Part shown: in pieces, positions 24,012 to 62,631 of the stretch
Numbering within the stretch: position 1 is the stretch's first letter
Layout of the letters: each line of letters begins with the position of its first letter
Origin: an uncultured virus (IMG/VR IMGVR_UViG_3300017991_000058)
Lineage: Duplodnaviria > Heunggongvirae > Uroviricota > Caudoviricetes
IMG/VR virus record: IMGVR_UViG_3300017991_000058
Length of the DNA: 64,000 bases
Reading direction: 5' to 3' (one strand)
Position numbers and translations under genes: made by a program
The notes under the pieces: model-generated
What the model saw: only the letters and a program-made list of their open reading frames with translations
Database searches by the model: none
Told to the model about the DNA's origin: nothing

Positions 24012-24434
24012 TTACTGCTCACCGAGCTCGACGACGCGCATTGACAGCTTCGGGGCGTTGACCCCCCCGGTCACGACGCGGGGGAACCCGGCGCGTTCGT
24101 ACTGCACGTCGGCGATGGTCCAGTCGACCGAAGCGAAGGACTCGATCTCGAACAGGCGAGAGGGCCCCCCGCAGCCCAGGTCGGAGACAAGGACGAACGC
24201 ATACGTCCCGAAGTCCCCGAATCCGCACGGGTCGGGCAGGTCGAGGAGTGTCAGGTCCAAGACGCCGGCCGCCCTGCAGTCGTCCGGGGCGGACGTCAGG
24301 TCGGACGAGACGCAGGCCAGCTCGAACACGCCGCGATCGGCGCCTCCTAGCCTCCACGCCGCCAGGCGGGCCGCGAGGTCGTCGCGGTCCGCGCCGAACA
24401 CAGCGACCATTCGGTACGCCATGCGGACCGTCAC
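24012..24434 (-). CDS. RLG-motif family protein (weak form)
   Basis: DDLAARLAAWRLGG; ends EQ* on the GAGCAGTAAC motif. Confidence 0.55.
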   Translation of the reverse strand: MTVRMAYRMVAVFGADRDDLAARLAAWRLGGADRGVFELACVSSDLTSAPDDCRAAGVLDLTLLDLPDPCGFGDFGTYAFVLVSDLGCGGPSRLFEIESFASVDWTIADVQYERAGFPRVVTGGVNAPKLSMRVVELGEQ

Positions 24435-24724
24435 GGCCGCGGCCTCCGCTCGAGCGCGTCGAGCCGCCTCTCGACGGTGTCTATCCGCTCGACGACCGCG
24501 CGCAGTGTGGCGGCGAGAGAGAAGACCTCGTCGACCGCATAGACGGCCCTCCGCACCGCGTACGCGAAGTGGGAGACGCCGGGCGACTGACCGGCCCAGC
24601 TCTCGAACATGTCGTTCGGAACGGCGTCGACGACGGCGCGCTCGAGCGAGTCGTCTCCGAGCCTCCTGGCGGCGTCTCGCTCGGCGACGGCGGCAAGCAG
24701 CCAGTGCGGCGCGCGGTAGGTCAC
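24431..24724 (-). CDS. Hypothetical coiled-coil protein
   Basis: Coupled GTGA overlaps. Confidence 0.5.
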   Translation of the reverse strand: MTYRAPHWLLAAVAERDAARRLGDDSLERAVVDAVPNDMFESWAGQSPGVSHFAYAVRRAVYAVDEVFSLAATLRAVVERIDTVERRLDALERRPRP

Positions 24725-25533
24725 CCGTCGTCGTCTCCGGACGGCGCCGGGACTCTCGGGGGCGGGTCCAGTCCGAGGTCCGCCGGCCCGTCGTCAGGCG
24801 GCTGGAATGGGGTGAACGTCCCGCACCTGACCCCGTCCGGGTTCGGGTCGTCCTCGAGCATGGCGGACAGCTCGGCGTGGCGGGCGGCGAGCTCGCCGAC
24901 GTAGTGGCCGACGCCGCGCGACGGGTCGGGGCGCCCGCATCCGAGAGCCTCGACTGCGACCCAGAAGCACTCGTTCAGCTCTCTCTCAGCCGGAGCCGGA
25001 TCGACGCGCTCGGCCGGCCAGACGTCCGTCGGACCGAGCTCCCACCCGTCCCGTCGACCGGAGCCGTCGGCGGACGCCGCGGCGGGCGTCGCCCACATCG
25101 CCGCGTCGAGACGGACCACGGGCCGCCCCCGCTCGTCGACGCACACCACCGTGGCGCCGGACCCGGCGGCCCCTCCGGGAACCCCTAGGTCGACGAGAAC
25201 GTCGCGCCGGACCCCGACGCGGTCTCCTACCGACGGAACGTACGGCTTGAACGTCACAGGCCCTCCATCCTCCCCACAGGTCCGAACACCGAACACCAGA
25301 TTGAACGTCGTTCCCTCGCAGATCAAGAACGGACCGCGAGCGGGTCTCAGCCCGCCGCCGCACCTAGGGCACTCCGTCGGTGCGAAGACGAACCCAAACG
25401 GCGCGGAGCACGTCGCGCACCGATAGCAGCCGATCTCACCTCCGAGCCGCCGCGCGGAGACCTCGGCGGCGGACGACGGGAGCACGAGAACCTCCGGCTC
25501 GGGCGGCGTCGGCGGGTCCACCTGGCGCGTCAC
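24721..25533 (-). CDS. Hypothetical protein with zinc ribbon and SH3-like segment
   Basis: CATC...CPRCG; VGDRVGV. Confidence 0.55.
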   Translation of the reverse strand: MTRQVDPPTPPEPEVLVLPSSAAEVSARRLGGEIGCYRCATCSAPFGFVFAPTECPRCGGGLRPARGPFLICEGTTFNLVFGVRTCGEDGGPVTFKPYVPSVGDRVGVRRDVLVDLGVPGGAAGSGATVVCVDERGRPVVRLDAAMWATPAAASADGSGRRDGWELGPTDVWPAERVDPAPAERELNECFWVAVEALGCGRPDPSRGVGHYVGELAARHAELSAMLEDDPNPDGVRCGTFTPFQPPDDGPADLGLDPPPRVPAPSGDDDG

Positions 25534-26105
25534 CCGGCGAGACGTCGAGCCAGCCGCGCGTTCGCGTCGATGGCCATCAGGGCGCAGAGACGGTCGTCGT
25601 CGTCGAGCCACGGGACGACCCTGGCGATATCCGGGGCCAGGGCGGCGAGACGCGAGACCAGCCCGTCGGTCCCCTCTCCGGCCTTCCCGTTCTGCTTGAG
25701 CTCCAGCTGGACCGGGTTCCTGTACGGCACGGAGCGGACCGCAGGGACGGTCGACAGGTCGCGGCGCGACTTCGGCTCGGGCGCGGCGTCCTCCCCGGGC
25801 TCGACCGCGAGCTCGTCGTCCGTGACGGGGTCAGCCTCCGTCTCCGTCTCCGCAGCCTCGGACTCGACCGGGAACCAGAGCTTGTTCCGCGACCGCCCGT
25901 CGAGCTGGGCGACGACGTCCTGAGACTGGAGTCCCTTCAGGAACCCCCTGACCGTCTGAGAGACGTTCAGGAGGGCCCGCTTGTCGCCCGTCCGCCGCTT
26001 GTACACGACGGCGATGTCTTTGGCCACGACGGCCCCTCCGTTCGCCCTGTTCAGGTCTCTCAGGATCTGCAGGACCATGGCCCGCCCCTTCTCGTCGAAC
26101 TTCAC
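25530..26105 (-). CDS. Possible winged-helix DNA-binding protein
   Basis: AGGAGG RBS; basic N-terminal helix-rich domain, acidic linker. Confidence 0.5.
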   Translation of the reverse strand: MKFDEKGRAMVLQILRDLNRANGGAVVAKDIAVVYKRRTGDKRALLNVSQTVRGFLKGLQSQDVVAQLDGRSRNKLWFPVESEAAETETEADPVTDDELAVEPGEDAAPEPKSRRDLSTVPAVRSVPYRNPVQLELKQNGKAGEGTDGLVSRLAALAPDIARVVPWLDDDDRLCALMAIDANARLARRLAG

Positions 26106-26120
26106 GGAGTCCTCCTATCT

Positions 26121-31773: not shown

Positions 31774-32150
31774 TCACGGGAAGCTCATATCGACGCGGGC
31801 GTCGACGACGTCCCAGACCGCGAATCGCCTGGACTCGAAGATCCGGCAGTCCCCCAGGACGAGGCGCGCTGCGAACGCGGGGCGGGTCCAGTGGGTGGGC
31901 TCGACCGCGTTGTGGGGGTTGATGTCGCGCTCGCCGGGCCAGCGGAGCAGGGCGAGGCGAGCTCCGGAGAGCCCCGGCGAGAGGAGGACGTCTCGGGCGC
32001 CGAGACGGTCCTCACGTCGTCCATGTGCAGGCGAGCCACCGACGCCCCGGCGGCCAGGTCGTCGTCGTCGTCGCCCAGGACGGCGACGCAGGTCTCCCGC
32101 CTAATCCAGGGACCGTTGTCCGACTCAGCTCTCAGGACGAGCGCCGTCAC
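31774..32150 (-). pseudogene. RLG-motif family gene with an apparent 1-nt deletion at ~32014
   Basis: ...ARLHMDDV joins EDRLGARDVLLSPG...DMSFP* in the -1 frame. Confidence 0.55.
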
Positions 32151-32539
32151 CGCAAGTCCCTCAGCCAGAACCGCCTGACGTCGAACACGGGCAGGACGAC
32201 GCTCTCGAACAGGCTCCGGACCCACACGGGAGACGCACCGCCGACCGCGGACCACCCGACGGGCGCGAGGATCGAGCCGGACTGACCGGGAACCGGGTAG
32301 GAGCGCTTGTCGTCGCGCAGCGGGGCGTCGAGCCTGACGACGAGCCACTCGACGACGTCCCGCCGCTCGACGGTCTTGTTCATCTCGACGACGACGAGAT
32401 CGTCGTCGGCAACCCACCCCCCTCCGAGACGGATCTCGGACTCGATCTCGGGCGGGAACATGCCGAGAAGGATATCGACCGCCTCGGCGTCGTTCCGCGC
32501 CGACCACAACAGCTCCATCAGGTCAGTGCCCGTCGCCAT
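32147..32539 (-). CDS. RLG-motif family protein
   Basis: DILLGMFPPEIESEIRLGGG. Confidence 0.7.
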   Translation of the reverse strand: MATGTDLMELLWSARNDAEAVDILLGMFPPEIESEIRLGGGWVADDDLVVVEMNKTVERRDVVEWLVVRLDAPLRDDKRSYPVPGQSGSILAPVGWSAVGGASPVWVRSLFESVVLPVFDVRRFWLRDLR

Positions 32540-32770: not shown

Positions 32771-33202
32771 CTACGGATCGGCGGCGACGCCCTTCTGCCA
32801 CGGGAATCTCCCGTCCCGCCCCGGGACGACGACCCAGAACGGAACTCTCAAACGGCTGAAGACCTGCGCCACGACGAGACGACAGACGGCCTCGTCGACG
32901 AACAGCCACCCGACGTCGCCGACGAAGTCCACGGCGCCGCGATCGAGATCGACGACCCCGTCGATGTGGGTGACGCGGACGAACGTGTACCGAACAGCCC
33001 GGCGTCCGTCTCGGCCGTCGAACCCGCGCTCTACCACGGCCAACCCGGACGCCCCGCCGACAAGCACGGTCTCCGCCGCCACGTCCGCTCCGAGCGGGCG
33101 CAGAATGGCGTCGACCTGCCCGTCCGAGAACGACCCGGCGCTCAAGCCGTCCGACCTCTCGACGGAGATCGTCTCGGAGATGTGGGGGCCGGCGTCCGTC
33201 AC
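32771..33202 (-). CDS. Hypothetical protein
   Basis: GTG 33202, coupled. Confidence 0.5.
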   Translation of the reverse strand: MTDAGPHISETISVERSDGLSAGSFSDGQVDAILRPLGADVAAETVLVGGASGLAVVERGFDGRDGRRAVRYTFVRVTHIDGVVDLDRGAVDFVGDVGWLFVDEAVCRLVVAQVFSRLRVPFWVVVPGRDGRFPWQKGVAADP

Positions 33203-33573
33203 CGCCCATCTCCGACGGAGACGACGCCGCCGACCGCCCAAGCGCCGACGATCCGGAACAGCGGGTCTGCGTCGTCGTGCGCAGGCGCTACGACGACGAC
33301 GGCCCGCGGCGCGCCGGAGACCCACAGCTCCCACACGACCCCGCAGCCGTCCGGAGACGGATGACCTCCGACGAACAGGGCGCGGTCTCCGAGCCTCAGG
33401 ACGGACTCGATCTCCGGCGGGAGACCCAACGATCCGGACATGAGCCGATCGGCCAGCCGCCCGGACGCGGCCTCCGTCGGAGTGAAGAACCCCTGCTCGG
33501 AGAGGACGACGGTCTCGAGCGTCCCGTCCAGGTCCCCCAGGTCTATCAGGGCGTCGCGCTCACCGCCGCTCAT
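33199..33573 (-). CDS. RLG-motif family protein
   Basis: LGLPPEIESVLRLGD. Confidence 0.7.
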   Translation of the reverse strand: MSGGERDALIDLGDLDGTLETVVLSEQGFFTPTEAASGRLADRLMSGSLGLPPEIESVLRLGDRALFVGGHPSPDGCGVVWELWVSGAPRAVVVVAPAHDDADPLFRIVGAWAVGGVVSVGDGR

Positions 33574-34256: not shown

Positions 34257-34580
34257 TCACCCCCACACCCAACTGTCCGCGCGGACGCCCCACCCGAGCG
34301 ACTTGGCGGCGGCGACGGCCCTGCGGACGGTGACGGTGAAGCTGGACGTCCCCAGACGGGCGACGACGACATCTCCCCCGAACGGAGAGGCAACGGACAC
34401 GACGACGTCCGCGCGGCCGGATCGGAGGGTCTCGACGCCGAGGACGGCGTCGACCTCTCCGCCGAGCCGCACGAAGGACGCCAGCGCCGGGTCGGAGACG
34501 GCGTCGGCCACAGCGCCGACCAGGACGTCGTTCGACGGACCCCAGCGCGAGACGCCGAACAGCCGGTCGAGGTCCGTCAC
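34257..34580 (-). CDS. RLG-motif family protein
   Basis: DPALASFVRLGG. Confidence 0.65.
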   Translation of the reverse strand: MTDLDRLFGVSRWGPSNDVLVGAVADAVSDPALASFVRLGGEVDAVLGVETLRSGRADVVVSVASPFGGDVVVARLGTSSFTVTVRRAVAAAKSLGWGVRADSWVWG

Positions 34581-35059
34581 GGCCGGCCCCCGTCGACGAG
34601 CTCCGCCGCGTGGACGACGAACCTCCTCGGCCCGATCTCCCACCCGTCCGTCGTCGACTGCTCGGCGAACCTCCCGGCGAACCGAGCGACGACGCGGCCG
34701 GAGACCTCGAGACGGTAGGGAAGCCGGACGCTTCGGTCGACCCAGATGACCCGGACGTCCGCCCCGAGGCGCACCGCGGACGCGACGTCCGGGGCCCCGC
34801 CGCGCAGGAGCTCCAGGGACTCCACGACGGCGACCGCGACGGTCGAGACACGCGGGTCGAGCCTGTCGAACACGACCATCTCGTACCGCGGCGGGACCTC
34901 CGACGTGACGAACACCAGGCGGCACTCCGAGCCCAGCATCATCTCGGCGGCGACGGTCGGCCACAGCTCGCCGACGGCGGCGACGAGGAGCGACTCGATC
35001 TCGGGCTCCCGGCCGAGGTCCAGCCCGTCGGAGACCGGCGCCCAGCGGTCCCGGCTCAC
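34577..35059 (-). CDS. RLG-motif family protein with two motif copies
   Basis: ELWPTVAAEMMLGS and APDVASAVRLGA. Confidence 0.7.
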   Translation of the reverse strand: MSRDRWAPVSDGLDLGREPEIESLLVAAVGELWPTVAAEMMLGSECRLVFVTSEVPPRYEMVVFDRLDPRVSTVAVAVVESLELLRGGAPDVASAVRLGADVRVIWVDRSVRLPYRLEVSGRVVARFAGRFAEQSTTDGWEIGPRRFVVHAAELVDGGRP

Positions 35060-35367
35060 GGCACGCCCCAATAGTCCCGCTCGTCCCGCTCGTCCACGAC
35101 GACGAACCTCCCCACGTCGACGGCGTCCGGGGCCGAACAGTCGACGGCGGACGCCGCCCCGTTCAGGACGTCGAACCTGGCCGCGATCCGCCCGTCGACG
35201 ACCAGCGTGCAGGGCAGGCGGAGAGCGACGTCGACGAGGACGTACGCCGACCGGCCGAGCCTGGCCGCCGCCCCGGCGTCCGGAGCCTCCAGCTCGAGCC
35301 GGCGGATCGCGGCCTCGACGAGCGCGGAGCGGTACATGCGGCCGGCCGCGAGGCGGTCGTCGCTCAT
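35056..35367 (-). CDS. RLG-motif family protein
   Basis: EAPDAGAAARLGR. Confidence 0.6.
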   Translation of the reverse strand: MSDDRLAAGRMYRSALVEAAIRRLELEAPDAGAAARLGRSAYVLVDVALRLPCTLVVDGRIAARFDVLNGAASAVDCSAPDAVDVGRFVVVDERDERDYWGVP

Positions 35368-35665: not shown

Positions 35666-35947
35666 TCACTGCTCGTCTCCCCCCGAGGCCCGCCCCGGGC
35701 CTCGGACCGCGTCGACCTCGAACCCCACGACCCGCCCGCCGAGCCACCGGAGCCAGTGCCCCTCGACGCGGACGGCGCCCCCGCCCCCGAACCGGAGCTC
35801 GTAGACCCCGGCCCCGAGCCGCTCGACCGAGAGCGACCCGGAGAGCCGGATCTCCGCCGCGAGCTCGGGCGCGAGCGCGCGGAGCGCCGCGTCGACCGGC
35901 CGGTCCGAGCAGGGGGCGGTCACGACGAGCCCGGCGGAACCGTCCAT
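35666..35947 (-). CDS. RLG-motif family protein
   Basis: ALRALAPELAAEIRLSG; ends DEQ*. Confidence 0.65.
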   Translation of the reverse strand: MDGSAGLVVTAPCSDRPVDAALRALAPELAAEIRLSGSLSVERLGAGVYELRFGGGGAVRVEGHWLRWLGGRVVGFEVDAVRGPGRASGGDEQ

Positions 35948-49140: not shown

Positions 49141-49460
49141 GGCCCAGTCCACGGCGGCTCGGCCTCGAGAACCGGCCACAGGTCGAACGGAGGGCAGTCG
49201 TCGGGCAGACCCACGACCCGCACGTTCTGGGGCGGGACGGCGACTATGGCGCCGCTGAGCTGTCGAGACTCCGACCCGAATCCCTCCACCGCGCGGATCT
49301 TGATCATCACCCGCGGCCCGGGCGAATCGACCACGACGCCGAGTAGCCGGACCGTCCCCGTGGTCCTGACGTCCGCTCCGGACGGCGGCCTGATCCTGGC
49401 CCCGAGCCGGACGGCGGCGGCGTGAGCGCGCGCGAGCTCTAGACGAGCGTCATCCGTCAT
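49137..49460 (-). CDS. RLG-motif family, PPFxxW subfamily
   Basis: AAAVRLGARIRPPSG...CPPFDLW. Confidence 0.65.
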   Translation of the reverse strand: MTDDARLELARAHAAAVRLGARIRPPSGADVRTTGTVRLLGVVVDSPGPRVMIKIRAVEGFGSESRQLSGAIVAVPPQNVRVVGLPDDCPPFDLWPVLEAEPPWTGP

Positions 49461-49471: not shown

Positions 49472-49774
49472 TTACTGCGCGTCGGCGAACCGGACGAGCG
49501 GGAGCCCCAGCGCGTCGGCGACCGGGGAGAGGCAGACCTCCGCGACGAGCTGGCCGCACTCCGGGATCGAGTACGTCGCCACGACCCCGGCCGGCCCGCG
49601 GAGCCACACGGACCTCTGCCCGACTGCGTAGGGCCCGATCATCAGCGATAGTCCGAACGTCTCGCCCCCGCCGAGGCGTATCAGGGAGGCAACGTGCGGC
49701 GGGGCGCCGGCGAGGATCTCCTCGGCAATGAGCCGCGGCTCGGCCCCCATGGCCAGCCGAGACGTCACGTCCAC
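49472..49774 (-). CDS. RLG-motif family protein
   Basis: ILAGAPPHVASLIRLGGG; LGLPL; ends AQ*. Confidence 0.72.
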   Translation of the reverse strand: MDVTSRLAMGAEPRLIAEEILAGAPPHVASLIRLGGGETFGLSLMIGPYAVGQRSVWLRGPAGVVATYSIPECGQLVAEVCLSPVADALGLPLVRFADAQ

Positions 49775-50106
49775 TCCGAGCGGCGACGGAGCTCAATCCC
49801 GAGAGAGCGAGAGACCGGCGGAAGCGCCGTGTAGACCGCGGAGCCGATCAGCATCCTGTAGGCGCCGGAGCTCGGATCGACGAGCTCGATGATCCGCCCT
49901 ATGACGCCGGCGGGGCGATACTCGCCCCTGCGGGCGACGGAGACGAACAGGGAGACGAGGTCATCTACCACGACCCTCCCGGAATAGACGACAGAGACCC
50001 TGCGCCATGATGAGTCACCGTCCACGACGACGGCGACGTCGGCCCCGAGCCGGACGGCGGACGCCGTCTCGGGGGGCAGAGCGCGGAGCAGGTCGTCGGG
50101 GGTCAA
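49765..50106 (-). CDS. RLG-motif family protein
   Basis: DDLLRALPPETASAVRLGA. Confidence 0.72.
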   Translation of the reverse strand: MTPDDLLRALPPETASAVRLGADVAVVVDGDSSWRRVSVVYSGRVVVDDLVSLFVSVARRGEYRPAGVIGRIIELVDPSSGAYRMLIGSAVYTALPPVSRSLGIELRRRSEWT

Positions 50107-50450
50107 AGCGGCTCGCCCCGTTCGTCGCGCCAGAAGGCGTCGCGCTCCTTCTTGAAATCGAACCCGAGGTCCCACTGGTCCTCCGTGCTGAGTCCGCTCT
50201 GGCGGATCGCCGCGAGGATGCACATGGGGCACCCCTCCGCGACCGACCGGAGCGCGTCGAGTCCGTCTAGCCGGAGGACGGCCACGAGGGCCGCCACAGA
50301 GTGCTCGGGAATCCCGAAGTACCTGCACATCCCGCACTCGCGGTTCGGGTTGTTCGTGCAGCGGCGCTCGTGCCTGGCCATGTGGGACGCGCTGCAGCCG
50401 GTCTTCCTGCAGTAGTCGCATCCGTAGCGCCACGTTCGCCACCGTCTCAC
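50103..50450 (-). CDS. Zinc-finger protein
   Basis: CDYC...H...C; CGMC; CPMC. Confidence 0.65.
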   Translation of the reverse strand: MRRWRTWRYGCDYCRKTGCSASHMARHERRCTNNPNRECGMCRYFGIPEHSVAALVAVLRLDGLDALRSVAEGCPMCILAAIRQSGLSTEDQWDLGFDFKKERDAFWRDERGEPL

Positions 50451-50806
50451 CGCCGACTCCCCCAGCCACGATACGGCTGGAGCGCGAATGTCGGCCCCGT
50501 CCCGGACCAGCCGCCCCCGGGGTGCAGCTGAACCCACGATCTGCCGCCGTCCGTGACGTGGATCAGACCGATGTGGAGCTCTCTGCACGCGTCGATCGTC
50601 CCGTCTAGAGACCGGCTCGGCGGGCGGTCGAACTCGAGTCGCGCGACAGAATCGTACCAGCCGGTGACCGCATCGACGCTCACGAGGCTGAATGAGTCGA
50701 GCCACTCCCTGCGCGCGTCGCAGAGGAGAGACAGTCCGGGCTCTTGCAGGAGGACGCGCGACGCGACGTCGTCCGGCAGGGCACCGATCAGCTCGTCGGC
50801 GGTCAT
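50447..50806 (-). CDS. RLG-motif family protein (variant)
   Basis: DELIGALPDDVASRVLLQEPGL. Confidence 0.65.
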   Translation of the reverse strand: MTADELIGALPDDVASRVLLQEPGLSLLCDARREWLDSFSLVSVDAVTGWYDSVARLEFDRPPSRSLDGTIDACRELHIGLIHVTDGGRSWVQLHPGGGWSGTGPTFALQPYRGWGSRR

Positions 50807-50808
50807 GG

Positions 50809-51468
50809 CTATCCGCCCCCTCTGGGAAACCTGGAGCACACGCCGACGTACCCGTCAAGCTGAGCGTACGGGTCTCCGAGGACGGCGACGGCCCCGAGTC
50901 TAAGCCAAAGCCACGCGCTTGAGTCCACGACCACAGAGACGCCTGCAGACGACGCCCCCTCGCCCAGCGCCCACGCCGTCGACGGGCGGAAGACCCTGCC
51001 GACCCTGCCGAGCCGGAACGGCCGGTCGACGTGCCAACGGAATCCGATCCGGCTGTCGTAATTGGCGAACGGTTCGCTGCCCGAGACGACGTAGCGACCG
51101 ACCCACAGATCGGCGACGAGGAGGACCCCTGGCTTCGGGAACGTTGTGATCTCGAGGTCGCCCATAAAGTCGCCGACGGTCCACCCCCCGCGCGACCTAT
51201 ACTCGAGACACCTGAAGACGTCCTCTGTCCATCTCCCCCTGACGGCGCGCCGAGTCGGGACGAATCCTGACCGCCTCCGCGCCATCTCCCTGAGCGTCAG
51301 CACGAGCGGCGGCATCCCCCCGAGACGATGGAGCGCCTCGACGTCGGCCGGCAGCGCCCGAAGGACGGCGGCGTCCCCCGACAGACCGTCCGCGACGTCG
51401 ACGTCCAGCGCCGACGGCCCCCTCAGTCTCGCGCCGGACTCGTCCGGGCCTCTCGACGTCGTCCTCAC
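50809..51468 (-). CDS. RLG-motif family protein (longer)
   Basis: VLRALPADVEALHRLGG; GTG 6 nt after GCGCAGTAAC. Confidence 0.65.
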   Translation of the reverse strand: MRTTSRGPDESGARLRGPSALDVDVADGLSGDAAVLRALPADVEALHRLGGMPPLVLTLREMARRRSGFVPTRRAVRGRWTEDVFRCLEYRSRGGWTVGDFMGDLEITTFPKPGVLLVADLWVGRYVVSGSEPFANYDSRIGFRWHVDRPFRLGRVGRVFRPSTAWALGEGASSAGVSVVVDSSAWLWLRLGAVAVLGDPYAQLDGYVGVCSRFPRGGG

Positions 51469-51510: not shown

Positions 51511-51777
51511 ATGGCACACGCACGAGCGAAGAGGAGCGCATCGAAGTGGGGCCCGTTCCGGCTCAAGCGGAAGTGGAACGGCCGACGCGTCAGGACGCTC
51601 GAGCGGCTCGAGACCCGCGGCGGCGACGCGTATCCGAAGGGAGCCATCGCCACCGTGGACGCGTCGTCGGCCGGAACGTTCAGCCTGTGGTTCGGGCCCT
51701 GCTCCCGCTGCGGCCACGAGGGCTCGGTGCGCGTCGACGCCGCGAGCTGGCGGCGGACGTTCGAGCTGGCCGAGTAG
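51511..51777 (+). CDS. Small hypothetical protein
   Basis: ATG 51511; CSRC. Confidence 0.6.
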   Translation: MAHARAKRSASKWGPFRLKRKWNGRRVRTLERLETRGGDAYPKGAIATVDASSAGTFSLWFGPCSRCGHEGSVRVDAASWRRTFELAE

Positions 51778-52088
51778 TGACGACCGTTGGCCAGCTCCTT
51801 CAGATCGCCGGAAGGATCTACACCGCCGACGACCACGACAGGAGACACGTCGCGGCCGAGGCGCTCTATCCGAGCGCCAGAGCGGCCGCGGCCCTCGGAG
51901 CCGAGGGGGCACCGAGGATGTTCATCCGGCGGCGGAGAGACGGAGACACGGACATCCTCGTCGCCGGCCCCGGAGACAGACCGAGGCTGGTCGCATCGCA
52001 GTTCGTCCCGGACCGGAACCGCCACAGGATCGTAAACGCCTTCGAGAACGCCGGGTGGACCGTAGTAGACTACTGTGGAGACCGATGA
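51777..52088 (+). CDS. Hypothetical protein
   Basis: GTG 51777, coupled. Confidence 0.55.
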   Translation: MTTVGQLLQIAGRIYTADDHDRRHVAAEALYPSARAAAALGAEGAPRMFIRRRRDGDTDILVAGPGDRPRLVASQFVPDRNRHRIVNAFENAGWTVVDYCGDR

Positions 52089-52465
52089 GACTGAAGATCA
52101 ACGTCGGACCGCTGATCGACGAGCTCCCGCCCGAGACGGGAGCCTCGCTGAGGCTCGGCGGCGGGCGCGCGAGCGGGCTGGCGTTCGTCGCCAGGTTCGA
52201 CAGCATGTCGGCGGTCGCCCTGAGCGTCGTCCGCATGCCGATCTCCAGGACGGACCTCGGCGCCGGGCACCTCTGCAGCCCTAGAGTTGCGGCCGAGTCG
52301 GCTCAGAAGCTGGGGTCCGAGAAGTTCTCGTGGACGGGCGTGAGCTACTGGCAGGCAAGGTGGGACCTCCTGGAGATGGCGCAGGCGTACGGGCTCCCGA
52401 TCGTCGAGGTCCCCCCGAACGGCGCCGGAGTGCGCGGAAGGCCGAGGTGGATCGATCATGGCTAA
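52085..52465 (+). CDS. RLG-motif family protein
   Basis: LIDELPPETGASLRLGGG..GLAFVARFD; YGLPIVEVP. Confidence 0.75.
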   Translation: MRLKINVGPLIDELPPETGASLRLGGGRASGLAFVARFDSMSAVALSVVRMPISRTDLGAGHLCSPRVAAESAQKLGSEKFSWTGVSYWQARWDLLEMAQAYGLPIVEVPPNGAGVRGRPRWIDHG

Positions 52466-53393: not shown

Positions 53394-53725
53394 GAGACCT
53401 GGCCGAGACGGGCGGCAGCATCGGTCTCCCGGACGGGGCGCGCATGATGGTCCGCGCCCCAAGAGACGCTGCCGTCGAGACGGCGCAGCGTCTCGTCGAC
53501 ATGCTGCCGCCCGGAACGTTTCACCGGGACGTCGAGTCCGCCATCCGACTCGGAGGGATCGACGGTTGGACGGACCTGGCGAGCGGGAGTCTGACGATCG
53601 TTGCGGCGGACGGGTCTACGATCGCCGAGGTCTTCGGCTCGCTGGGAGACTGCCTAAACGTCGAGATCGTGGGTTCTGCGCTTCGTGACGGCGCCGCTCT
53701 CGTACGCCGACCCGAAGGCGCGTAG
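53390..53725 (+). CDS. RLG-motif family protein
   Basis: LVDMLPPG...DVESAIRLGG. Confidence 0.68.
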   Translation: MRDLAETGGSIGLPDGARMMVRAPRDAAVETAQRLVDMLPPGTFHRDVESAIRLGGIDGWTDLASGSLTIVAADGSTIAEVFGSLGDCLNVEIVGSALRDGAALVRRPEGA

Positions 53726-54142
53726 GTTCGGGTACAGAGCGGCCGTCGACGTGATCGGTGACTCGCACTGGTGGAGGACGGAGTCGCCGCGCGAGTCTAG
53801 CCAGCTCGGCGCCGCCCACAGCCCGATCGTCCGGAAGGCGTCGACGACGCACCTGACAAGATGGAGCACCGACTGAAACTGCTCCCCGACGGCGAACACC
53901 GGGACGTCGGGCCCCTCCACGGCGACGTCGGCGACGACGTGCCTCCCGAGCCCCGGGACCTCTACGACGAGCCCGAGACGCCTGAAGACGGTCTCCCCAG
54001 AACCGCGGCGCCAGACGACGCGGATGCAGCCCCCCTCGGCGACCCCGGCTCCAAGCCGAAGGGCTGCCGACATCTCCGCCGGGAGGGCCCCGAGGACGAG
54101 CTCGAGCGTGCGGCGATCCCCCGCGGTCGGCTGTCTCACCAT
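53654..54142 (-). CDS. RLG-motif family protein
   Basis: VLGALPAEMSAALRLGA. Confidence 0.7.
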   Translation of the reverse strand: MVRQPTAGDRRTLELVLGALPAEMSAALRLGAGVAEGGCIRVVWRRGSGETVFRRLGLVVEVPGLGRHVVADVAVEGPDVPVFAVGEQFQSVLHLVRCVVDAFRTIGLWAAPSWLDSRGDSVLHQCESPITSTAALYPNLRAFGSAYESGAVTKRRTHDLDV

Positions 54143-54450
54143 CTCTCCATGTGGTCGATGCCCCACCCGAACCCGATGGCCATCCATCGAAGGTTCTTCG
54201 CGGCGGCCAAGCTGGTGAACGTTCCGATCTCGTGGATGACGCCGTCGACGAGGACGCTGGCACGACTGCGCCCGCCGTCGTCGACGGTCCTGATGACAAG
54301 CGCGGCGTAGGCGCCAAGTCTCAGCCGGGACGCGACGTCCGGCGGGAGAGCGGACATCACAACGAGCTCGACGTCGAGCTCGTCGGCGCACTCGTTCGGC
54401 GCCACGGACAGACTGATGCGATCCAGGGTCTCTCCGACGTCGCCGCTCAC
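54136..54450 (-). CDS. RLG-motif family protein
   Basis: VMSALPPDVASRLRLGA. Confidence 0.7.
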   Translation of the reverse strand: MSGDVGETLDRISLSVAPNECADELDVELVVMSALPPDVASRLRLGAYAALVIRTVDDGGRSRASVLVDGVIHEIGTFTSLAAAKNLRWMAIGFGWGIDHMERW

Positions 54451-54677: not shown

Positions 54678-54986
54678 CTACGACCCCCACCAAGTGTGGC
54701 AAGACAGCAGCCTGATCCCGAGTTTGACGGCCACCATAGCGGCGTCCGCCAGGGACTCGAACTCGATGCCGGCCGCAACGGTCGGGGGAGTTCCTATCCC
54801 CCTGCGACGCGGGTCGGCCCGCACGATTCGATACAGGTAGCAGTCGCCGCCGATAAGAGAGACAGACTCGTCCCGTTCGTACCACAGGGCCAGCTCGCCG
54901 GACCCGCCGACGAGCCTGATCTCCGCGGCGATCTCGCCGGGGAGCTGATGCAGCAGCGATTCGACGGTCGCGTCGATTGCCATCAT
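54678..54986 (-). CDS. RLG-motif family protein
   Basis: SLLHQLPGEIAAEIRLVGG. Confidence 0.72.
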   Translation of the reverse strand: MMAIDATVESLLHQLPGEIAAEIRLVGGSGELALWYERDESVSLIGGDCYLYRIVRADPRRRGIGTPPTVAAGIEFESLADAAMVAVKLGIRLLSCHTWWGS

Positions 54987-56108: not shown

Positions 56109-56399
56109 TTACTGCGCATCCGGCGGGAACCGTAGCCAGAGCTCGAACGGAGGGGAGCCCGGCGGGACGCTGACGACGGTCGGCGGCACGTCTCCCGGAA
56201 CGTCGTAGCTCGTGGATGATATTCCGGGGTAAGTCTCCCTGAACACGTCGACCGCGATCGATCTCCGCTCTACGAATGCAGTGGAGACGGTCCACAGCTC
56301 CGGCTCCCGGCCGAACATGACGACGGACCCCTCCGGAGGGACGGCCGGGTCGCCCAGTCGCAGGGCGGCGTTCACCCGTCGGAGATCGTCGGGGGTCAC
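56109..56399 (-). CDS. RLG-motif family, PPFxxW subfamily
   Basis: NAALRLGDPAVPPEG...SPPFELW; ends AQ*. Confidence 0.65.
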   Translation of the reverse strand: MTPDDLRRVNAALRLGDPAVPPEGSVVMFGREPELWTVSTAFVERRSIAVDVFRETYPGISSTSYDVPGDVPPTVVSVPPGSPPFELWLRFPPDAQ

Positions 56400-56935
56400 C
56401 GTCGCCTCCGCCGACGCCGGCGTCCCGGCTCCGGGACGCGGTCTCTCGCCTTCCCCAACCTCCCCCGACTCGGAGGAGACGGCTCGGGCAGAGGCGCTCT
56501 GGATCGAGCCGGGGCCGAAGAGACCCCTCCGGGAGACTCCTGGAGACGTCCCCGGCTCCCCGCCGCGGGCGGGTGGTCTCCTGGAGGGGTGCGGCTCGGC
56601 GGCCGGCGGAGCTCGAGAGGCGGCGGGACGTGGACCCGAGACACGGTCACCTCAGAGTCCAACTCATCGCAGCTTCCGACGGCCATGAGACGCGACAGAC
56701 ACTCCGCCTCGCGGACGATCCCGACGTGCTCCACGGGCAGGTAGCCTACGCGGACCTTCAGCAGGGTTCCAGGCCACCAGTGGGAGCCTCGCTCTAGGAC
56801 GTCCAGGATCAGCTCGACGCGCGCCCCGAGACGGTACGCGGCGTTCGCCTCGTCGGAGAGACTCGGGAGCAGGAAGTCGTCGACGATCCTGTCGACGGCC
56901 GCCGCGTCCCGCACATCCGCGTCGAGCTCCCTCAC
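56396..56935 (-). CDS. RLG-motif family protein; C-terminal frame doubtful
   Basis: LLPSLSDEANAAYRLGA. Confidence 0.55.
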   Translation of the reverse strand: MRELDADVRDAAAVDRIVDDFLLPSLSDEANAAYRLGARVELILDVLERGSHWWPGTLLKVRVGYLPVEHVGIVREAECLSRLMAVGSCDELDSEVTVSRVHVPPPLELRRPPSRTPPGDHPPAAGSRGRLQESPGGVSSAPARSRAPLPEPSPPSRGRLGKARDRVPEPGRRRRRRRR

Positions 56936-57243
56936 CAGTGCATCCTGTGGCGAATGCCCACGGACTGAACCAAGCTGATCATGAACTGGACGCTCACGAC
57001 GTACCCCAGGTGGCGGCGCGCTCCTTCGTCCACCGAGACGTCCACCGACCAGACAGACCTGTCCGGGACCATCGTCATGTGGACGCACACGTCGGCTCCC
57101 AGGCGGAGTGCGGACTCCGTCTCGGCGCCAAGCACACCCATGAGCCACCGAGACTGGCCGTCGGGAGCCCCGGCGAACACGACGTCGTCGAGCCACAGGA
57201 CGTCGTTCGTACTAGTAGGACGGCGCACCGCAGGACCATCCAA
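56932..57243 (-). CDS. RLG-motif family protein
   Basis: VLGAETESALRLGA. Confidence 0.65.
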   Translation of the reverse strand: MDGPAVRRPTSTNDVLWLDDVVFAGAPDGQSRWLMGVLGAETESALRLGADVCVHMTMVPDRSVWSVDVSVDEGARRHLGYVVSVQFMISLVQSVGIRHRMHW

Positions 57244-58607: not shown

Positions 58608-59002
58608 GGGTCGCCTCCCGGAAGGATCACGTCTATCGGCTCGGCCGAGTCGACGGGCCACCTTACGGGCACCCCGAGAACCCCGATCTTAGACGACGGC
58701 TCCCCGAGAGCGAACCGGACCACGACGGCAGGGACCCACGTAACGAATCCGTGCGGCCAGAACACGACGTCGGCGGCGCGGCAGAACATCAGGTCGGCCG
58801 GTAGACCCCCCTCGTCGTCGGTCCGGACGAACAGTGCTCCGTCGGAGTCCAATCCTATCCTCGAGACGGACTGACCTTCTGCGACGTCTCCGACGCAGCC
58901 GCCTCCGAGGCGCTCCACAGAGTCCGCGGCGACGAGGTCGTCCACAGACCGCGCGAACCTCGCGACGACGTCCGGGTCCCCGCAGTAGTACACGCGAGTC
59001 AT
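58604..59002 (-). CDS. Hypothetical protein, weak RLG motif
   Basis: DLVAADSVERLGGG. Confidence 0.55.
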   Translation of the reverse strand: MTRVYYCGDPDVVARFARSVDDLVAADSVERLGGGCVGDVAEGQSVSRIGLDSDGALFVRTDDEGGLPADLMFCRAADVVFWPHGFVTWVPAVVVRFALGEPSSKIGVLGVPVRWPVDSAEPIDVILPGGDP

Positions 59003-59253
59003 CGACCCCTCGTGATGACCACGGCGTCGGACGTCTCGACTACTCTCCACTTGACGCGGCCCCTATGAAGATCGCTGACGTCCGCGCCCGGTCCGGAGAA
59101 TCCGATCTCCTGGACCAAGAACGACCACGGACCGGGCTCGTCGGCGCCGAGTCTCCAGGACGAGTCGGCCTCGAGAAGCTCGGACTCGTCGGCGGCGAGC
59201 AGGACCCTGACCGACATGACGCCCCTCTCGCAGCTGACGCGCAGCACGGTCAT
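58999..59253 (-). CDS. Hypothetical protein, weak RLG motif
   Basis: LLEADSSWRLGA. Confidence 0.5.
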   Translation of the reverse strand: MTVLRVSCERGVMSVRVLLAADESELLEADSSWRLGADEPGPWSFLVQEIGFSGPGADVSDLHRGRVKWRVVETSDAVVITRGR

Positions 59254-59660
59254 CGCCTGAGCCCCAACGTCGCCATGGCCAGCCTCGTCGCGTACGTCCT
59301 CCAGCCGGCGTTCCTCGCCCCCTCCCACATCCACCGCACGGTCGACGGATGGCGGCACGCACCGATCACGCACGGCGGGTCGGTCCCGCCGACTGCGAAC
59401 GCGTAGACGACGGCGGCGGGGTCTAGCGGGCGGGTCGCGGCTATCGTCGACGGCCTGACCGACGGGGTCGCGGAGACGTTGGGCTCCAGGGCCGTGCGCT
59501 CGACCCGCACGCTGAGCGCGATCGGCCCGCCGAGCCTGAGGACCGACTCGAGCTCCGGCGGGAGCAGGGACGTCACCCTGCGCGCGGCGCGCGCGAACCG
59601 ATCCATCGTCGCGGACATCGGGTCGCCGGAGTAGGAGAAGATCTCGTCGAGGTCTCTCAT
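59250..59660 (-). CDS. RLG-motif family protein
   Basis: SLLPPELESVLRLGG. Confidence 0.72.
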   Translation of the reverse strand: MRDLDEIFSYSGDPMSATMDRFARAARRVTSLLPPELESVLRLGGPIALSVRVERTALEPNVSATPSVRPSTIAATRPLDPAAVVYAFAVGGTDPPCVIGACRHPSTVRWMWEGARNAGWRTYATRLAMATLGLRR

Positions 59661-60055
59661 CTCGCGCTCCAGCGCCCGTCCGCCCCGGGCCGCCCTACGT
59701 AGAGCCCGCTGTCGCACCAGCCGAGCGCCTGAACGGCCGCCCGCACGAGGCGGGCGGTCATGATGCGGGACGTTCTCCCGAGGACGACGTCCCTAGCGTC
59801 GCCCGGGAAGCGGGCGACGACGTGCCAGGACTTCCGTCCCGGTCTCCGGATGAGCATGACGGTGAGGCGGAGGTCCCCCCCCAGCCGAGCCGCCGATGCG
59901 GTCTCCGGATCGAAGGCGCCGAGCTGGGCGAGCAGTACGTCGACGGCGGCCGCGACGTCGAGACTGCCGCCGCCCGACGCGCCGCGCAGCTCGACGTCCA
60001 GGTCCAGGCCCCCGCGAGGGGCCCCAGGAAGGTGCGTGAGGGGCCTTCGAGCCAT
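59657..60055 (-). CDS. RLG-motif family protein
   Basis: AFDPETASAARLGG. Confidence 0.68.
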   Translation of the reverse strand: MARRPLTHLPGAPRGGLDLDVELRGASGGGSLDVAAAVDVLLAQLGAFDPETASAARLGGDLRLTVMLIRRPGRKSWHVVARFPGDARDVVLGRTSRIMTARLVRAAVQALGWCDSGLYVGRPGADGRWSAR

Positions 60056-60090
60056 CCGGGGTACGTTACTGCTCTTCGTCGCCGCGGCGC

Positions 60091-60381
60091 TCACGAGAGC
60101 CGCCAGACGGCCTCGCGAGCGTCTCCGGCGGGCCCGGTCGGCCTGGCCAGGACGTCGACGCGGAACACCCCGGCAGGCCAGTGGTCCTCGATTTGCCTCA
60201 TGACGTAGCCCTCGATCTCCTCCGCCGAGCTGGTGTAGGGGGACTCGTCGTAGACGACGATCACAGAGAACCCGTCCACGCCCGGCTCTATCCGCACGTC
60301 GTAGGCCGCGCAGAAGTCGCGCCCGATCACGCCGACGACCGTGTCGACGAACAGGTCGAGCCGCGGGCCGGGTCGGGCCAC
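60091..60381 (-). CDS. C-terminal WRL-motif protein; paralog of 15189-15467
   Basis: PAGVFRVDVLARPTGPAGDAREAVWRLS. Confidence 0.62.
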   Translation of the reverse strand: MARPGPRLDLFVDTVVGVIGRDFCAAYDVRIEPGVDGFSVIVVYDESPYTSSAEEIEGYVMRQIEDHWPAGVFRVDVLARPTGPAGDAREAVWRLS

Positions 60382-60692
60382 TACGAGACTCCGTCTAGGA
60401 GTCGCCGCCACAGGCGGCCCGTCGGGGGCGAGAACCGCTCGGCGAGGACGGCGCGGTGGGGGCGGAGGGCGACGACGACGGCGGTGGCCATCCCGACGTA
60501 GCGGCCGTCGACGTACATGTGCCACAGCTCTCCGTCCCCGACGGCGCTCATGTCGGGGCGGCTGCGCGGCCCGCCGAACTCCCACCGGACGTCCGCCGCG
60601 AGACGAATTCTGGCCTCCAGGTCCGGCGACAGCCACCCCCTCCCCAGGATCGACTCGAGAAGCACGGACGCGGAGTCGTAGTTCAGGCTCAT
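60381..60692 (-). CDS. RLG-motif family protein
   Basis: GWLSPDLEARIRLAA. Confidence 0.62.
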   Translation of the reverse strand: MSLNYDSASVLLESILGRGWLSPDLEARIRLAADVRWEFGGPRSRPDMSAVGDGELWHMYVDGRYVGMATAVVVALRPHRAVLAERFSPPTGRLWRRLLDGVS

Positions 60693-60696: not shown

Positions 60697-60984
60697 TCAC
60701 CCGTGAAACGGAGCGTTGTACATCCGCCAGCCAATCATCTTGAGAACGACGTACAGCATCAGCTGCTGCTCGTCGACTCTCCAGGCGACGGCCGGAGCCA
60801 TGCCGATCCAGACGACGGCGATGATGCCGGGGCTCTCGTCGTCCGGCCGGCTGAACAGAACGGTCGCGGACCCGCCCAGCCTGACAGAGGCGCGGTCGTC
60901 GGCGTCGGGGATGGTCCCGATCAGCCAGTCGACGGCCCCGCCGATGGACAGCTCAGCCAGCGCCGAGTCGACGGCTATCTCCAC
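60697..60984 (-). CDS. RLG-motif family protein
   Basis: LIGTIPDADDRASVRLGG. Confidence 0.62.
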   Translation of the reverse strand: MEIAVDSALAELSIGGAVDWLIGTIPDADDRASVRLGGSATVLFSRPDDESPGIIAVVWIGMAPAVAWRVDEQQLMLYVVLKMIGWRMYNAPFHG

Positions 60985-61376
60985 CGGCGGCAACACCGGA
61001 GCTCTCTCCTCATCCGCATCCTGTCTATGGCGTCGGCGTACGGCTCCATCGCCGCCGTGTCGCCGCCCCCCGGGAACCGGAGGTCGAACACACGCCATCC
61101 CTGCATGGTTCCGAGGCGCAGCACGGCCGCGACGGCGAACCCGTCGTCGTGCCCGAGCAGGGTCACGTCGACCCACTCCTCGCCCTCACCGTCCACGCGG
61201 GCCTTCAGCAGGGCCGGTCCGTCGTCCGGCTCCCCCCAGACCAGCAGCTCTACAACGGCTCCCAGCCTCGCCGCGGCGGACGCCTCCGCCGAGATCCGCT
61301 CCTCGACGAACAGCCGAGTGACCATGGCGATGTCGTCGTCCGACACGGGGCCCTCTGGTCCTTCAAGCATCTCCAT
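60975..61376 (-). CDS. RLG-motif family protein
   Basis: ISAEASAAARLGA. Confidence 0.6.
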   Translation of the reverse strand: MEMLEGPEGPVSDDDIAMVTRLFVEERISAEASAAARLGAVVELLVWGEPDDGPALLKARVDGEGEEWVDVTLLGHDDGFAVAAVLRLGTMQGWRVFDLRFPGGGDTAAMEPYADAIDRMRMRRELRCCRRWR

Positions 61377-61379
61377 AGG

Positions 61380-61742
61380 TTACTGCTCGTCGCGGCGCGG
61401 GCCGAGCAGGGCGACGGACTCCCCGTCGAGTCGACGTCCGCTCTCCGACGTCAGCATGACCCAGTGACTGGCGCACGGAGTCAACCACGTTCGCCCCAAG
61501 AACGAGCGCGTCAGGGGAATGCCGACCCCGGCGGCGATCTCGTAGGGGACTCGAACGAAGTTGCGGGGGAGCTCGGCGAGGCGAACGTCGCGCCGATACA
61601 GGGTCAATCTGAACCGCCCGGAGCGGGAACCTTCGACGTGGAGACGGAGACCGCCGGCCACGACGTCGTGCGGCCTCTCGGCCAGGCGGATCTCCGAGGC
61701 GATCTCGGGCGGCATCAGAGCGAGTAGCCAGTCTCCCGTCAC
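61380..61742 (-). CDS. RLG-motif family protein
   Basis: WLLALMPPEIASEIRLAE; ends DEQ*. Confidence 0.72.
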   Translation of the reverse strand: MTGDWLLALMPPEIASEIRLAERPHDVVAGGLRLHVEGSRSGRFRLTLYRRDVRLAELPRNFVRVPYEIAAGVGIPLTRSFLGRTWLTPCASHWVMLTSESGRRLDGESVALLGPRRDEQ

Positions 61743-62083
61743 CTGCGCCGCCCCCTCCCCTTGCGCCGCCGCCTGAGCCGCTTGGCGCGCACGTACTTCA
61801 TCCCGAGATGTCGCGCGAGCTCTCTCGCCCCGAGCGCCAGAGGGAGACCGTCGAGCCTCTCGACGATGTCCGTCACCGACGCGAGCACCGCTCCGTTCAT
61901 GGTGCGGCGGACGCTGTACGTCGTCCCGGCGGACGACCGGACGATCTTCAGCCCGCCGCCGCCGCCGAGCCTGACGAGAGACTGGACGTCGACGGGGAGG
62001 CGCGCGACGAGCTCGTCTGCGCCCCCGGCCACGATCGCCGTGATATTCACGCGGCGAGCCATACGCTCCAACATACCCGTCAC
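61739..62083 (-). CDS. RLG-motif family protein
   Basis: ELVARLPVDVQSLVRLGGG. Confidence 0.72.
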   Translation of the reverse strand: MTGMLERMARRVNITAIVAGGADELVARLPVDVQSLVRLGGGGGLKIVRSSAGTTYSVRRTMNGAVLASVTDIVERLDGLPLALGARELARHLGMKYVRAKRLRRRRKGRGRRR

Positions 62084-62631
62084 GTCCGCCACCCGGCCCT
62101 CCCATAGTAGCCGGCCTCCGCCCACAGCGTCGCGCCGGGGCACGCGACGACGGGCCACCGCAGGAGCCTCGCCGCGTCGACGACGGCGATCGCCCCGGCC
62201 AGGGACCCGACGCGACCGACGGGGACGACGCGCTCGCTCTCTTCGAGATAGCCGGCGGTCCCGAGGTCCAGCAGAATGGCCCGATGGATCGCCGGGTCCG
62301 CGGCGAGCGAGACGCGCGCCGGAGCCTCGGCGACGCAGACGTCGACGAAGGACCCGTCCGGACGCTTTGGGATCGGACCGCCGACCCCCCTCCCGCGACG
62401 GACAAGGGTCGCCCGAACGTCCTTCAGGGGAACGTTAGTCTCTGCGAACGCGCCGGACGGCGTCGGGGCAAACTCCCGCATGACGACGCCGAGATCGACG
62501 CGCGCCCCCAGCCTGAACTCGGACGCGAGAGCGGCGTCGACGCGGGCCAGCACGGCGACGAACCTGTCCGGCAACTCGTCGACGGAGCCGCACGGAACGA
62601 GCAGGCTGTCGATGCAGTCCATCAGCCGCAC
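62080..62631 (-). CDS. RLG-motif family protein
   Basis: VDAALASEFRLGA. Confidence 0.62.
   Translation of the reverse strand: MRLMDCIDSLLVPCGSVDELPDRFVAVLARVDAALASEFRLGARVDLGVVMREFAPTPSGAFAETNVPLKDVRATLVRRGRGVGGPIPKRPDGSFVDVCVAEAPARVSLAADPAIHRAILLDLGTAGYLEESERVVPVGRVGSLAGAIAVVDAARLLRWPVVACPGATLWAEAGYYGRAGWRT

Follow-up and report, generated by a model that had tools for sequence, protein, structure and literature searches.

What are the many small proteins that share one short motif across a long tract of phage DNA: a gene family, a constant tag in front of unrelated bodies, or chance matches in GC-rich sequence? And what could so many of them be for? The question is raised by a 64,000-nt stretch of DNA, here called the window, from an uncultured virus of the Caudoviricetes (IMG/VR record IMGVR_UViG_3300017991_000058). 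A first-pass annotation had described, between positions 24012 and 62631, an array of about 65 small divergent proteins with the motif LPxExxSxxRLGG. From the analysis below we conclude that 47 genes are members of one homologous family of ~100-residue predicted alpha/beta domains, and that the array is, as far as sequence comparison can tell, a lineage-specific expansion of a single orphan protein family.

The motif-bearing genes and their relationship

The G+C content of the window is 69–77% throughout, and the phage is described as having 70% GC. Genes were called with our own script scoring third-position GC (GC3), and gene starts are therefore approximate. This yielded 135 genes, nearly all on the minus strand and with a GC3 of 0.80–0.98; the list was adjusted at three places by six-frame searches.

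We seeded a profile hidden Markov model (HMM) with the 16 genes carrying the strict motif and ran it through five iterations. At an independent E-value (iE) below 1e-3 it matched 42 domains in 41 called proteins (43 genes with the corrected list), against none of 135 reversed and none of 1350 shuffled proteins. A six-frame scan with the same HMM gave 43 domain matches, 42 of them in called coding frames and one in a frameshifted copy, and none in the reversed window or in 10 trinucleotide shuffles. Using jackhmmer with five different seeds and reversed decoys in the database, none of which was recovered, we added four remote or partial members. Because reversed, shuffled and shadow-frame controls all remained without a match, the family is real, and a chance motif produced by GC-rich composition was rejected.

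The family thus comprises 47 of the 76 called genes in 32147–62631, plus two uncalled remnants, and its coding sequence of 17,556 nt fills 58% of that span. Both the initial count and the initial extent have to be reduced: even with the mini-families described below and a few singletons, roughly 58–60 open reading frames (ORFs) carry some form of the motif, and 24012–32146 contains one mini-family member (24012–24434) and weak motif matches, every robust main-family member lying within 32147–62631. Other details noticed at first sight held up. Members occupy both strands (43 minus, 4 plus), 33 of the 91 same-strand junctions from 23.9 kb onward are 4-nt ATGA/GTGA overlaps, the gene at 47748 has an extra, Cys-rich N-terminal extension, and the one at 34577 contains two HMM domains. 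The members and remnants are listed here with lengths in amino acids (aa); most HMM iE values are from the profile search of the corrected gene list.

32147..32539, minus: family member, 130 aa; HMM iE 3e-16
32771..33202, minus: family member, 143 aa; HMM iE 1e-13
33199..33573, minus: family member, 124 aa; HMM iE 1e-08
34257..34580, minus: family member, 107 aa; HMM iE 2e-14
34577..35059, minus: member with two domain copies, 160 aa; HMM residues 21–79 (6e-4) and 68–160 (3e-11)
35056..35367, minus: weak member, 103 aa; HMM iE 2e-04, phmmer link to 34577–35059
35666..35947, minus: family member, 93 aa; HMM iE 4e-12
37610..38161, minus: decayed copy; six-frame HMM match 37967–38158, outside called genes
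38203..38595, minus: family member, 130 aa; HMM iE 3e-17
38658..39086, minus: family member, 142 aa; HMM iE 5e-14
39083..39502, minus: family member, 139 aa; HMM iE 1e-16
41564..41860, plus: family member, 98 aa; HMM iE 2e-18
41884..41994, plus: truncated remnant, ~36 codons then stop; DNA repeat D16, 74% to 41593–41658, and translation
42459..42926, minus: family member, 155 aa; HMM iE 7e-16
42875..43231, minus: family member, 118 aa; HMM iE 3e-16
43222..43554, minus: remote member, 110 aa; jackhmmer only, 2/5 seeds, 0 decoys
43575..44039, minus: family member, 154 aa; HMM iE 9e-19
44036..44434, minus: family member, 132 aa; HMM iE 3e-13, six-frame scan
44431..44718, minus: family member, 95 aa; HMM iE 3e-08
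44700..45134, plus: family member, 144 aa, start uncertain; HMM iE 1e-19
45138..45497, minus: family member, 119 aa; HMM iE 7e-18
45494..45748, minus: split member, C-terminal half, 84 aa; jackhmmer 2/5 seeds, LDLPLAE..W end present
45758..45910, minus: split member, N-terminal half (partner of 45494..45748), 50 aa; HMM iE 2e-16
45907..46227, minus: family member, 106 aa; HMM iE 9e-13
46445..46810, minus: family member, 121 aa; HMM iE 1e-13
47106..47390, minus: family member, 94 aa; HMM iE 1e-11
47377..47751, minus: family member, 124 aa; HMM iE 5e-18
47748..48230, minus: member with 66-residue Cys-rich N-terminal extension, 160 aa; HMM iE 5e-14, domain from residue 67
48227..48496, minus: family member, 89 aa; HMM iE 1e-14
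48766..49152, minus: family member, 128 aa; HMM iE 1e-13
49472..49774, minus: family member, 100 aa; HMM iE 2e-17
49765..50106, minus: family member, 113 aa; HMM iE 2e-15
50447..50839, minus: family member, 130 aa; HMM iE 7e-15
50809..51468, minus: member with long body, 219 aa; HMM iE 4e-10
51777..52088, plus: family member, 103 aa; HMM iE 2e-15
52085..52465, plus: family member, 126 aa, the modelled one; HMM iE 6e-22
53654..54142, minus: family member, 162 aa; HMM iE 1e-14
54136..54450, minus: family member, 104 aa; HMM iE 8e-17
54678..54986, minus: family member, 102 aa; HMM iE 5e-18
56396..56935, minus: remote member, 179 aa; HMM iE 1e-03, jackhmmer 3/5 seeds
56932..57228, minus: family member, 98 aa; HMM iE 2e-14
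59250..59660, minus: family member, 136 aa; HMM iE 8e-18
59657..60094, minus: family member, 145 aa; HMM iE 6e-15
60381..60692, minus: weak member, 103 aa; HMM iE 1e-04
60697..60996, minus: family member, 99 aa; HMM iE 1e-12
60975..61346, minus: remote member, 123 aa; jackhmmer 2/5 seeds
61380..61715, minus: family member, 111 aa; HMM iE 5e-11
61739..62092, minus: family member, 117 aa; HMM iE 1e-13
62080..62631, minus: family member, 183 aa; HMM iE 2e-11

Some eleven other small ORFs, among them two mini-families that we call A2 (three genes) and A3 (six genes), have only an a..RLG motif in common with the main family. The motif lies at the end of a predicted helix in both; the A2 signature is AA.RLGA ... 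PPFD.W, and A3 proteins show a strand followed by a helix that ends in W/L-RLG.

46807..47118, minus: A2; A2 alignment, hhalign probability 1% to main family
49137..49460, minus: A2; A2 alignment, phmmer
56109..56399, minus: A2; A2 alignment, phmmer, two relatives in the related genome G001 (see below)
40530..40859, plus: A3; A3 alignment, hhalign probability 1.6% to main family
40862..41224, plus: A3; A3 alignment
41221..41559, plus: A3; A3 alignment
42040..42378, plus: A3; A3 alignment
24012..24434, minus: A3 outlier, 8 kb outside the array; A3 HMM 7e-26
58999..59253, minus: A3; A3 HMM 7e-20

Alignment to the main family by hhalign extended over 11–22 columns only, with probabilities of 1% (A2) and 1.6% (A3). 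A motif-only HMM matched five non-family proteins at 6.8 bits or more, against 4 of 1350 shuffled ones (~0.4 expected per 135), and the a..RLG motif thus recurs above chance. This sharing may reflect very remote homology or a recurring short module, the one point that speaks for the tag idea of the first pass; an AlphaFold2 model of the A3 member 40862..41224 was too poor for fold comparison (predicted local distance difference test score, pLDDT, 50.9). Two small minus-strand ORFs, 39499–39768 and 40108–40377, have an AEAxLRL[AS] variant of the motif and may be very remote members; the former is linked by phmmer to the member 44431–44718.

Conservation, predicted fold and decay

Aligned to the profile, the motif reads D-x-L-L-x-x-L-P-P-[ED]-[VLI]-A-[SA]-x-[ILV]-R-L-G-G. 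The Leu and a small residue are invariant (42/42 each), followed by the Arg (35/42), the E/D position (33/42) and the two Gly (30/42 and 24/42), and hydrophobic positions are spaced every four residues. Beyond the motif, the conserved positions are an Arg of strand 1 (27/38), the Pro that follows strand 2 (35/36), V-[AG], A..L-G-[WLI]-P and a C-terminal Trp (16/18). Near-invariant positions throughout the family are L, R, P, G and W only, with a single conserved acidic position in the N-terminal helix.

As first proposed, the motif is conserved at the protein level, because the codons beneath it vary (Arg: AGG 12, CGG 9, CGC 8, CGT 6, CGA 1, AGA 1; invariant Leu: CTC 29, CTG 10, CTT 3, CTA 2) and DNA repeats within the array are only 60–80% identical. 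The remainder of the proteins had been thought to differ widely. The bodies are nevertheless homologous: median pairwise identity is 23% overall, 33% in the motif region and 19% elsewhere, and the highest value, 47%, was seen solely with a truncated copy. The part that varies in both sequence and length is the middle segment of 15–70 residues between the conserved Pro and the C-terminal helix. The isoelectric points (pI) range from 4.1 to 11.9, with 22 of 43 members acidic and 14 basic.

We modelled the member at 52085–52462 with AlphaFold2 from a 35-member alignment (mean pLDDT 80.8; predicted template modelling score, pTM, 0.75). In the model, two short helices are followed by a glycine turn and a beta hairpin; after a helical insert of lower confidence come strand 3, a long helix and two short strands (element order H-H-E-E-(h-h)-E-H-E-(h)-E). 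The motif forms the second N-terminal helix and the glycine turn into strand 1. As this block is modelled with confidence (pLDDT 83–88) inside a compact domain, the motif is predicted to be part of the fold and not a tail. For the 47 robust members, the idea of a constant tag preceding variable bodies therefore has to be abandoned, the bodies aligning over the whole domain.

The motif starts 2 to ~90 residues from the N-terminus and the domain at residue 1 to 68; this scatter disfavours an N-terminal addressing or cleavage signal. A cleavage tag was rejected, the GG pair being present in only 30/42 and 24/42 and the motif being predicted within the fold. A ubiquitin-like or LxGG protease substrate was likewise discarded, considering these Gly frequencies, the Leu at P3 instead of P4 and the predicted site between helix and strand 1.

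Comparison of the model with known structures yielded no clear neighbour. Foldseek returned nothing at E ≤ 0.001 (best E 0.09 in PDB and 0.0097 in BFVD), and VIA-align against 48,161 representative chains found none at Z ≥ 5. The best VIA-align match, the glucokinase N-subdomain (Z 4.5, root-mean-square deviation 3.6 Å, 92 residues), has a Z below the tool's background for models without a true match, which indicates that at most a common strand-helix arrangement is shared. Recurrent neighbours were ASKHA N-subdomains, the connection and RNase H domains of HIV reverse transcriptase, and the TerL and RuvC nucleases. The predicted order of elements after the motif (three strands, helix, strand, short helix, strand) and these weak matches would be compatible with an RNase H-like/ASKHA N-terminal subdomain, but the family lacks conserved catalytic or phosphate-binding residues and has two additional helices at the N-terminus. 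Among the fold-search matches, SUKH, immunity and anti-CRISPR structures were not prominent, an absence that does not exclude SUKH. The ESM Atlas gave no usable feature match, and its structure matches, obtained with the Atlas's own poor model as query, had template modelling (TM) scores of at most 0.44.

The family evolves by birth and death, as is evident from three decaying copies and from the differing copy numbers in relatives reported below. The copy at ~37.6–38.2 kb (37610..38161) has no standard start codon near the domain and continues in another frame in its C-terminal part. Its sequence is identical in contigs of other runs, and its ortholog P0038 is intact, with 166 aa and 69% identity. 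The second case is the split member 45758–45910/45494–45748 and the third the 36-codon stump at 41884–41994. Orthologs from a further metagenomic relative, at 69% identity, come close to the 73% of the large terminase (G001), which argues that individual paralogs are maintained and not free-running. Neighbouring members resemble each other slightly more than random pairs do (0.258 versus 0.23, permutation p = 0.004). A diversity-generating retroelement was rejected, since Pfam detected no reverse transcriptase in the window.

Relatives of the phage and the surroundings of the array

The first-pass annotation had not recognised the family, and neither do current libraries: the main family matched 0 models in Pfam and NCBIfam, 0/35 members had a match in PHROGs and 0/35 in PADLOC, and no PDB sequence was found at E ≤ 10. 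A profile search of 1,835,955,588 representative proteins at E ≤ 0.001 produced 52 matches, of which 32 are the window's own proteins. Ten of the remaining 20 were traced, leading to two IMG/VR contigs or to short Logan contigs, and the sole name given was 'hypothetical protein'. A word-index protein search with the main-family alignment found five matches, all the window's own, the index being too coarse for this family. A tblastn search with a family member against phage records, a megablast search of 50,697 phage records with queries of 11 kb and 17 kb from the window, and a search for loci related to P0014 in viral or metagenome contigs all remained without a match. In the literature searched, we found neither a description of the family nor a paper joining 'RLGG' and 'phage'. 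On this sequence evidence the family is an orphan, restricted to one phage clade and left blank by current annotation.

Against cultured phages, the terminase reaches no more than 24% identity. Its closest relatives are in two myovirus-like genomes that we call G001 (73%; 108,941 bp) and G002 (63%; 108,577 bp). The main family has 47 copies in the window, 9–15 in G001 and 3–4 in G002, and three more distant relatives have no members or just two matches at E ~0.005–0.008. These differences in copy number point to a lineage-specific expansion. In G001, transcription runs almost entirely from a single strand. The array of this genome occupies 97.8–108.9 kb at the upstream contig end, ahead of the genes for terminase, head, tail, helicases, RecA, SSB and methylases, and the order in the window is the same. 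The only cellular terminase match, at 46% identity, lies on a 44-kb contig in a Myxococcales metagenome-assembled genome (MAG), too little to name a host. The main family is absent from this MAG, and among 401 genomes of the same phylum one gave a weak match.

The window's own proteins were found on contigs of up to 127,578 bp, suggesting a myovirus-like phage of ~128 kb. Metagenome runs of marine sediment and seawater from six studies contain contigs with near-identical sequence, in which no differences appear over stretches of kilobases; no RNA data set was listed among the runs. A 12-nt insertion variant at 35722, in frame within the member 35666–35947, was seen in a single contig of run X1 and a single one of run X2. 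Apparent joints in run contigs, with sides of 20–25 letters, were set aside as repeats or other organisms.

Within the array, the gene at 36620..37405 (minus strand, 261 aa) does not belong to the family and is the only array gene kept at the DNA level with G001 (blastn 70% over 776 nt to 101201–101966). Its product has a helix-turn-helix-looking N-terminus, no Pfam or PHROG match and no related locus in viral contigs. On the plus strand, opposite to most of the array, 52836–53393 encodes a possible regulator of 185 residues, in which two helix-turn-helix repeats precede a cluster of Cys at the C-terminus. The segment 34001–40000 has a G+C of 0.755–0.772, compared with ~0.70 elsewhere, and contains the frameshifted copy and two gaps of ~0.7 kb with no called gene.

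Outside the array, Pfam and PHROGs assigned head and packaging genes to 3–14 kb; between 18 and 64 kb they gave almost no matches. No tRNA genes were found in the window. The assigned and otherwise conspicuous genes are as follows.

3–14 kb: head and packaging set with major capsid protein, XkdF-type protease, MuF, portal, matrixin-like peptidase and large terminase (Pfam and PHROGs)
5625–7877, minus: 750-residue protein with the XkdF-type head protease as its C-terminal end; the G001 counterpart (73030–78081) has 1683 residues and, in addition, an ATP-dependent DNA ligase domain
11460–12047, minus: matrixin-like zinc peptidase between the portal and terminase genes, a place kept in G001
15467–16552, minus: chorismate mutase/DAHP synthase fusion (Pfam 1e-15 and 3.5e-71) adjoining the packaging genes, a phage-borne auxiliary metabolic gene of the shikimate pathway
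17241–17933, minus: serine recombinase of 229 residues with a resolvase domain and the start of a 'Recombinase' domain, an enzyme of the short invertase type or else a large serine integrase that is truncated; the gene is also present in G001
15189–15470 and 60091–60381: paralog pair unrelated to the main family (phmmer), connecting the packaging region with the array
1–232 and 232–732: second such pair

Possible roles of the array and comparison with known systems

For the function of the array, we tentatively prefer a set of small, diversified binder proteins that would serve host takeover or anti-defence, a reading that falls somewhat short of an even chance. Each gene would encode a small soluble alpha/beta domain, in which two short N-terminal helices would end in the invariant Leu and the glycine turn (LPxExxSxxRLGG) and lead into a beta hairpin ending at the conserved Pro. 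The variable middle would follow, and a conserved helix, a strand and the Trp (A..LG[WL]P.xEVP..W) would close the domain. The conserved parts would act as a common scaffold, and the variable middle together with the differing surface charge would confer on each paralog its own binding specificity. Expressed, probably early, from the genome's upstream end in long transcripts with translational coupling, the set would bind and then neutralise or redirect many different host proteins.

Five features led us to this preference: the upstream placement, the 4-nt overlaps, the lack of internal promoter-like or terminator-like sites (none above shuffled expectation in the array), the tenfold variation in copy number, and the fixed frame with its variable insert and charge. 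The diversified library or arsenal suggested at first pass is therefore still the best available reading, having lost only its tag-plus-body form. Three points weigh against it. The contig end in G001 need not be the physical end of the genome, no match to known anti-defence or defence models was obtained (PADLOC 0/35, PHROGs 0/35), and the paralogs are old, with a median identity of 23%, so that the rapid, continuing duplication of an active arms race is not in evidence. The more specific proposal, a repertoire that would give one phage dozens of inhibitors in readiness for the varied defence or toxin systems of its host population, built on one previously unseen scaffold and kept by birth-and-death evolution, appears doubtful at present.

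The strong conservation of the motif could alternatively mean that the N-terminal helix-turn docks every paralog on a single common partner (a host protease, RNA polymerase or a phage hub, for instance), and that the variable part recruits targets. The motif region is indeed the best conserved part (33% versus 19% median identity), its polar residues are kept (E/D 33/42, Arg 35/42), and the otherwise unrelated A2 and A3 proteins carry a..RLG above shuffled expectation. We nevertheless consider such an adaptor unlikely, as the motif is confidently modelled as an integral part of the fold, the four-residue hydrophobic spacing and the invariant Leu resemble a buried helix face, and no candidate partner was identified.

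The structural neighbours raise a further alternative, a catalytically dead RNase H-like or ASKHA-like domain whose copies serve as structural DNA or RNA binders or as specific regulators. RNase H-like folds were the only recurrent neighbours, the member 47748–48230 carries a fused Cys-rich extension resembling a zinc ribbon, 14 of the 43 members are basic, and such roles are proposed for the zinc ribbons of phage G in the relevant part of Iyer et al. (PMC7824862). Yet the best Z of 4.5 is below the tool's background, conserved acidic catalytic residues are lacking and 22 of 43 members are acidic, making this explanation quite improbable.

Very little probability remains for a hetero-oligomer in which the paralogs assemble into one structure with the conserved elements as shared interface: co-linear, translationally coupled genes and the conserved hairpin and C-terminal strand would suit it, but the roughly tenfold copy-number variation among relatives and the decaying copies are unexpected for a fixed assembly. 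Internal proteins of T4 have polymorphic bodies behind a conserved N-terminal targeting sequence. Packaging of the family into the head by its motif in a similar way, with possible cleavage after GG by the head protease and injection with the DNA, is the least probable explanation; the phage does encode an XkdF-type head protease and a MuF protein, but the motif is found 2 to ~90 residues from the N-terminus and not at its extreme as in T4, the GG pair is incomplete (30/42 and 24/42), the model places the motif within the fold, a long distance separates the array from the head module, and we know of no precedent for 47 virion cargo species.

Whatever its role, the domain has neither detectable relatives beyond its own clade nor a clear structural neighbour, and it defines a new family even without an assigned function. 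Should its members be specific binders of host proteins, they would provide a new protein scaffold and, already at hand, a set of candidate inhibitors of bacterial systems. The relatives, with their tenfold difference in copy number, would then amount to a natural experiment in the diversification of phage counter-measures.

Large tandem families of one small protein are, to our knowledge, rare in phages; with dozens of tandem paralogs here and far fewer in relatives, the array has the properties of a lineage-specific expansion. T4 internal proteins are likewise small, non-essential-looking, without known homologs, variable among relatives and thought to act on the host. The ~35-copy zinc-ribbon expansion of Bacillus phage G is called 'unprecedented' in section 3.4.3 of Iyer et al. 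2021 (PMC7824862), where its function is proposed from context only. There too, by that section's account, one small domain exists in dozens of copies within a single large phage, with no function assigned. The present domain differs from that described zinc ribbon in being an alpha/beta domain of ~100 residues without metal ligands, clade and habitat are different, and 47 copies in a genome of ~128 kb amount to a much larger genome share.

In the T4-type hyperplastic regions portrayed by Arbiol et al. 2010 (PMC2839356), small genes that look non-essential and have no known homologs are likewise grouped in blocks, which vary among relatives and are thought to act on the host. These regions consist of unrelated ORFans between cassettes of promoters and stem-loops, whereas the array consists of one homologous family with overlapping stop and start codons and no promoter-like or terminator-like sites above chance.

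The closest conceptual analogue is provided by the SUKH immunity proteins, which form tandem 'polyimmunity' arrays and have also been recruited by large DNA viruses, according to the pertinent parts of Zhang, Iyer and Aravind 2011 (PMC3113570). Homology is not indicated: SUKH models gave no match at E ≤ 0.01 in the 134 called window proteins, PF09346 was absent from G001 and G002 (control genomes were positive), and the SUKH core described there has four helices and six strands arranged as a hairpin plus a four-strand meander, whereas our model places a helix between strands 3 and 4. In contrast to SUKH loci, no toxin genes lie near the array, and Pfam found no toxin domain in the window. The likeness is one of organisation, tandem and strongly diverged small alpha+beta paralogs being read in that description as alternative binders of diverse partners. 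If the array is an inhibitor repertoire, it would be a viral counterpart of the polyimmunity loci, and among phages of ordinary size no larger set of this kind would be known.

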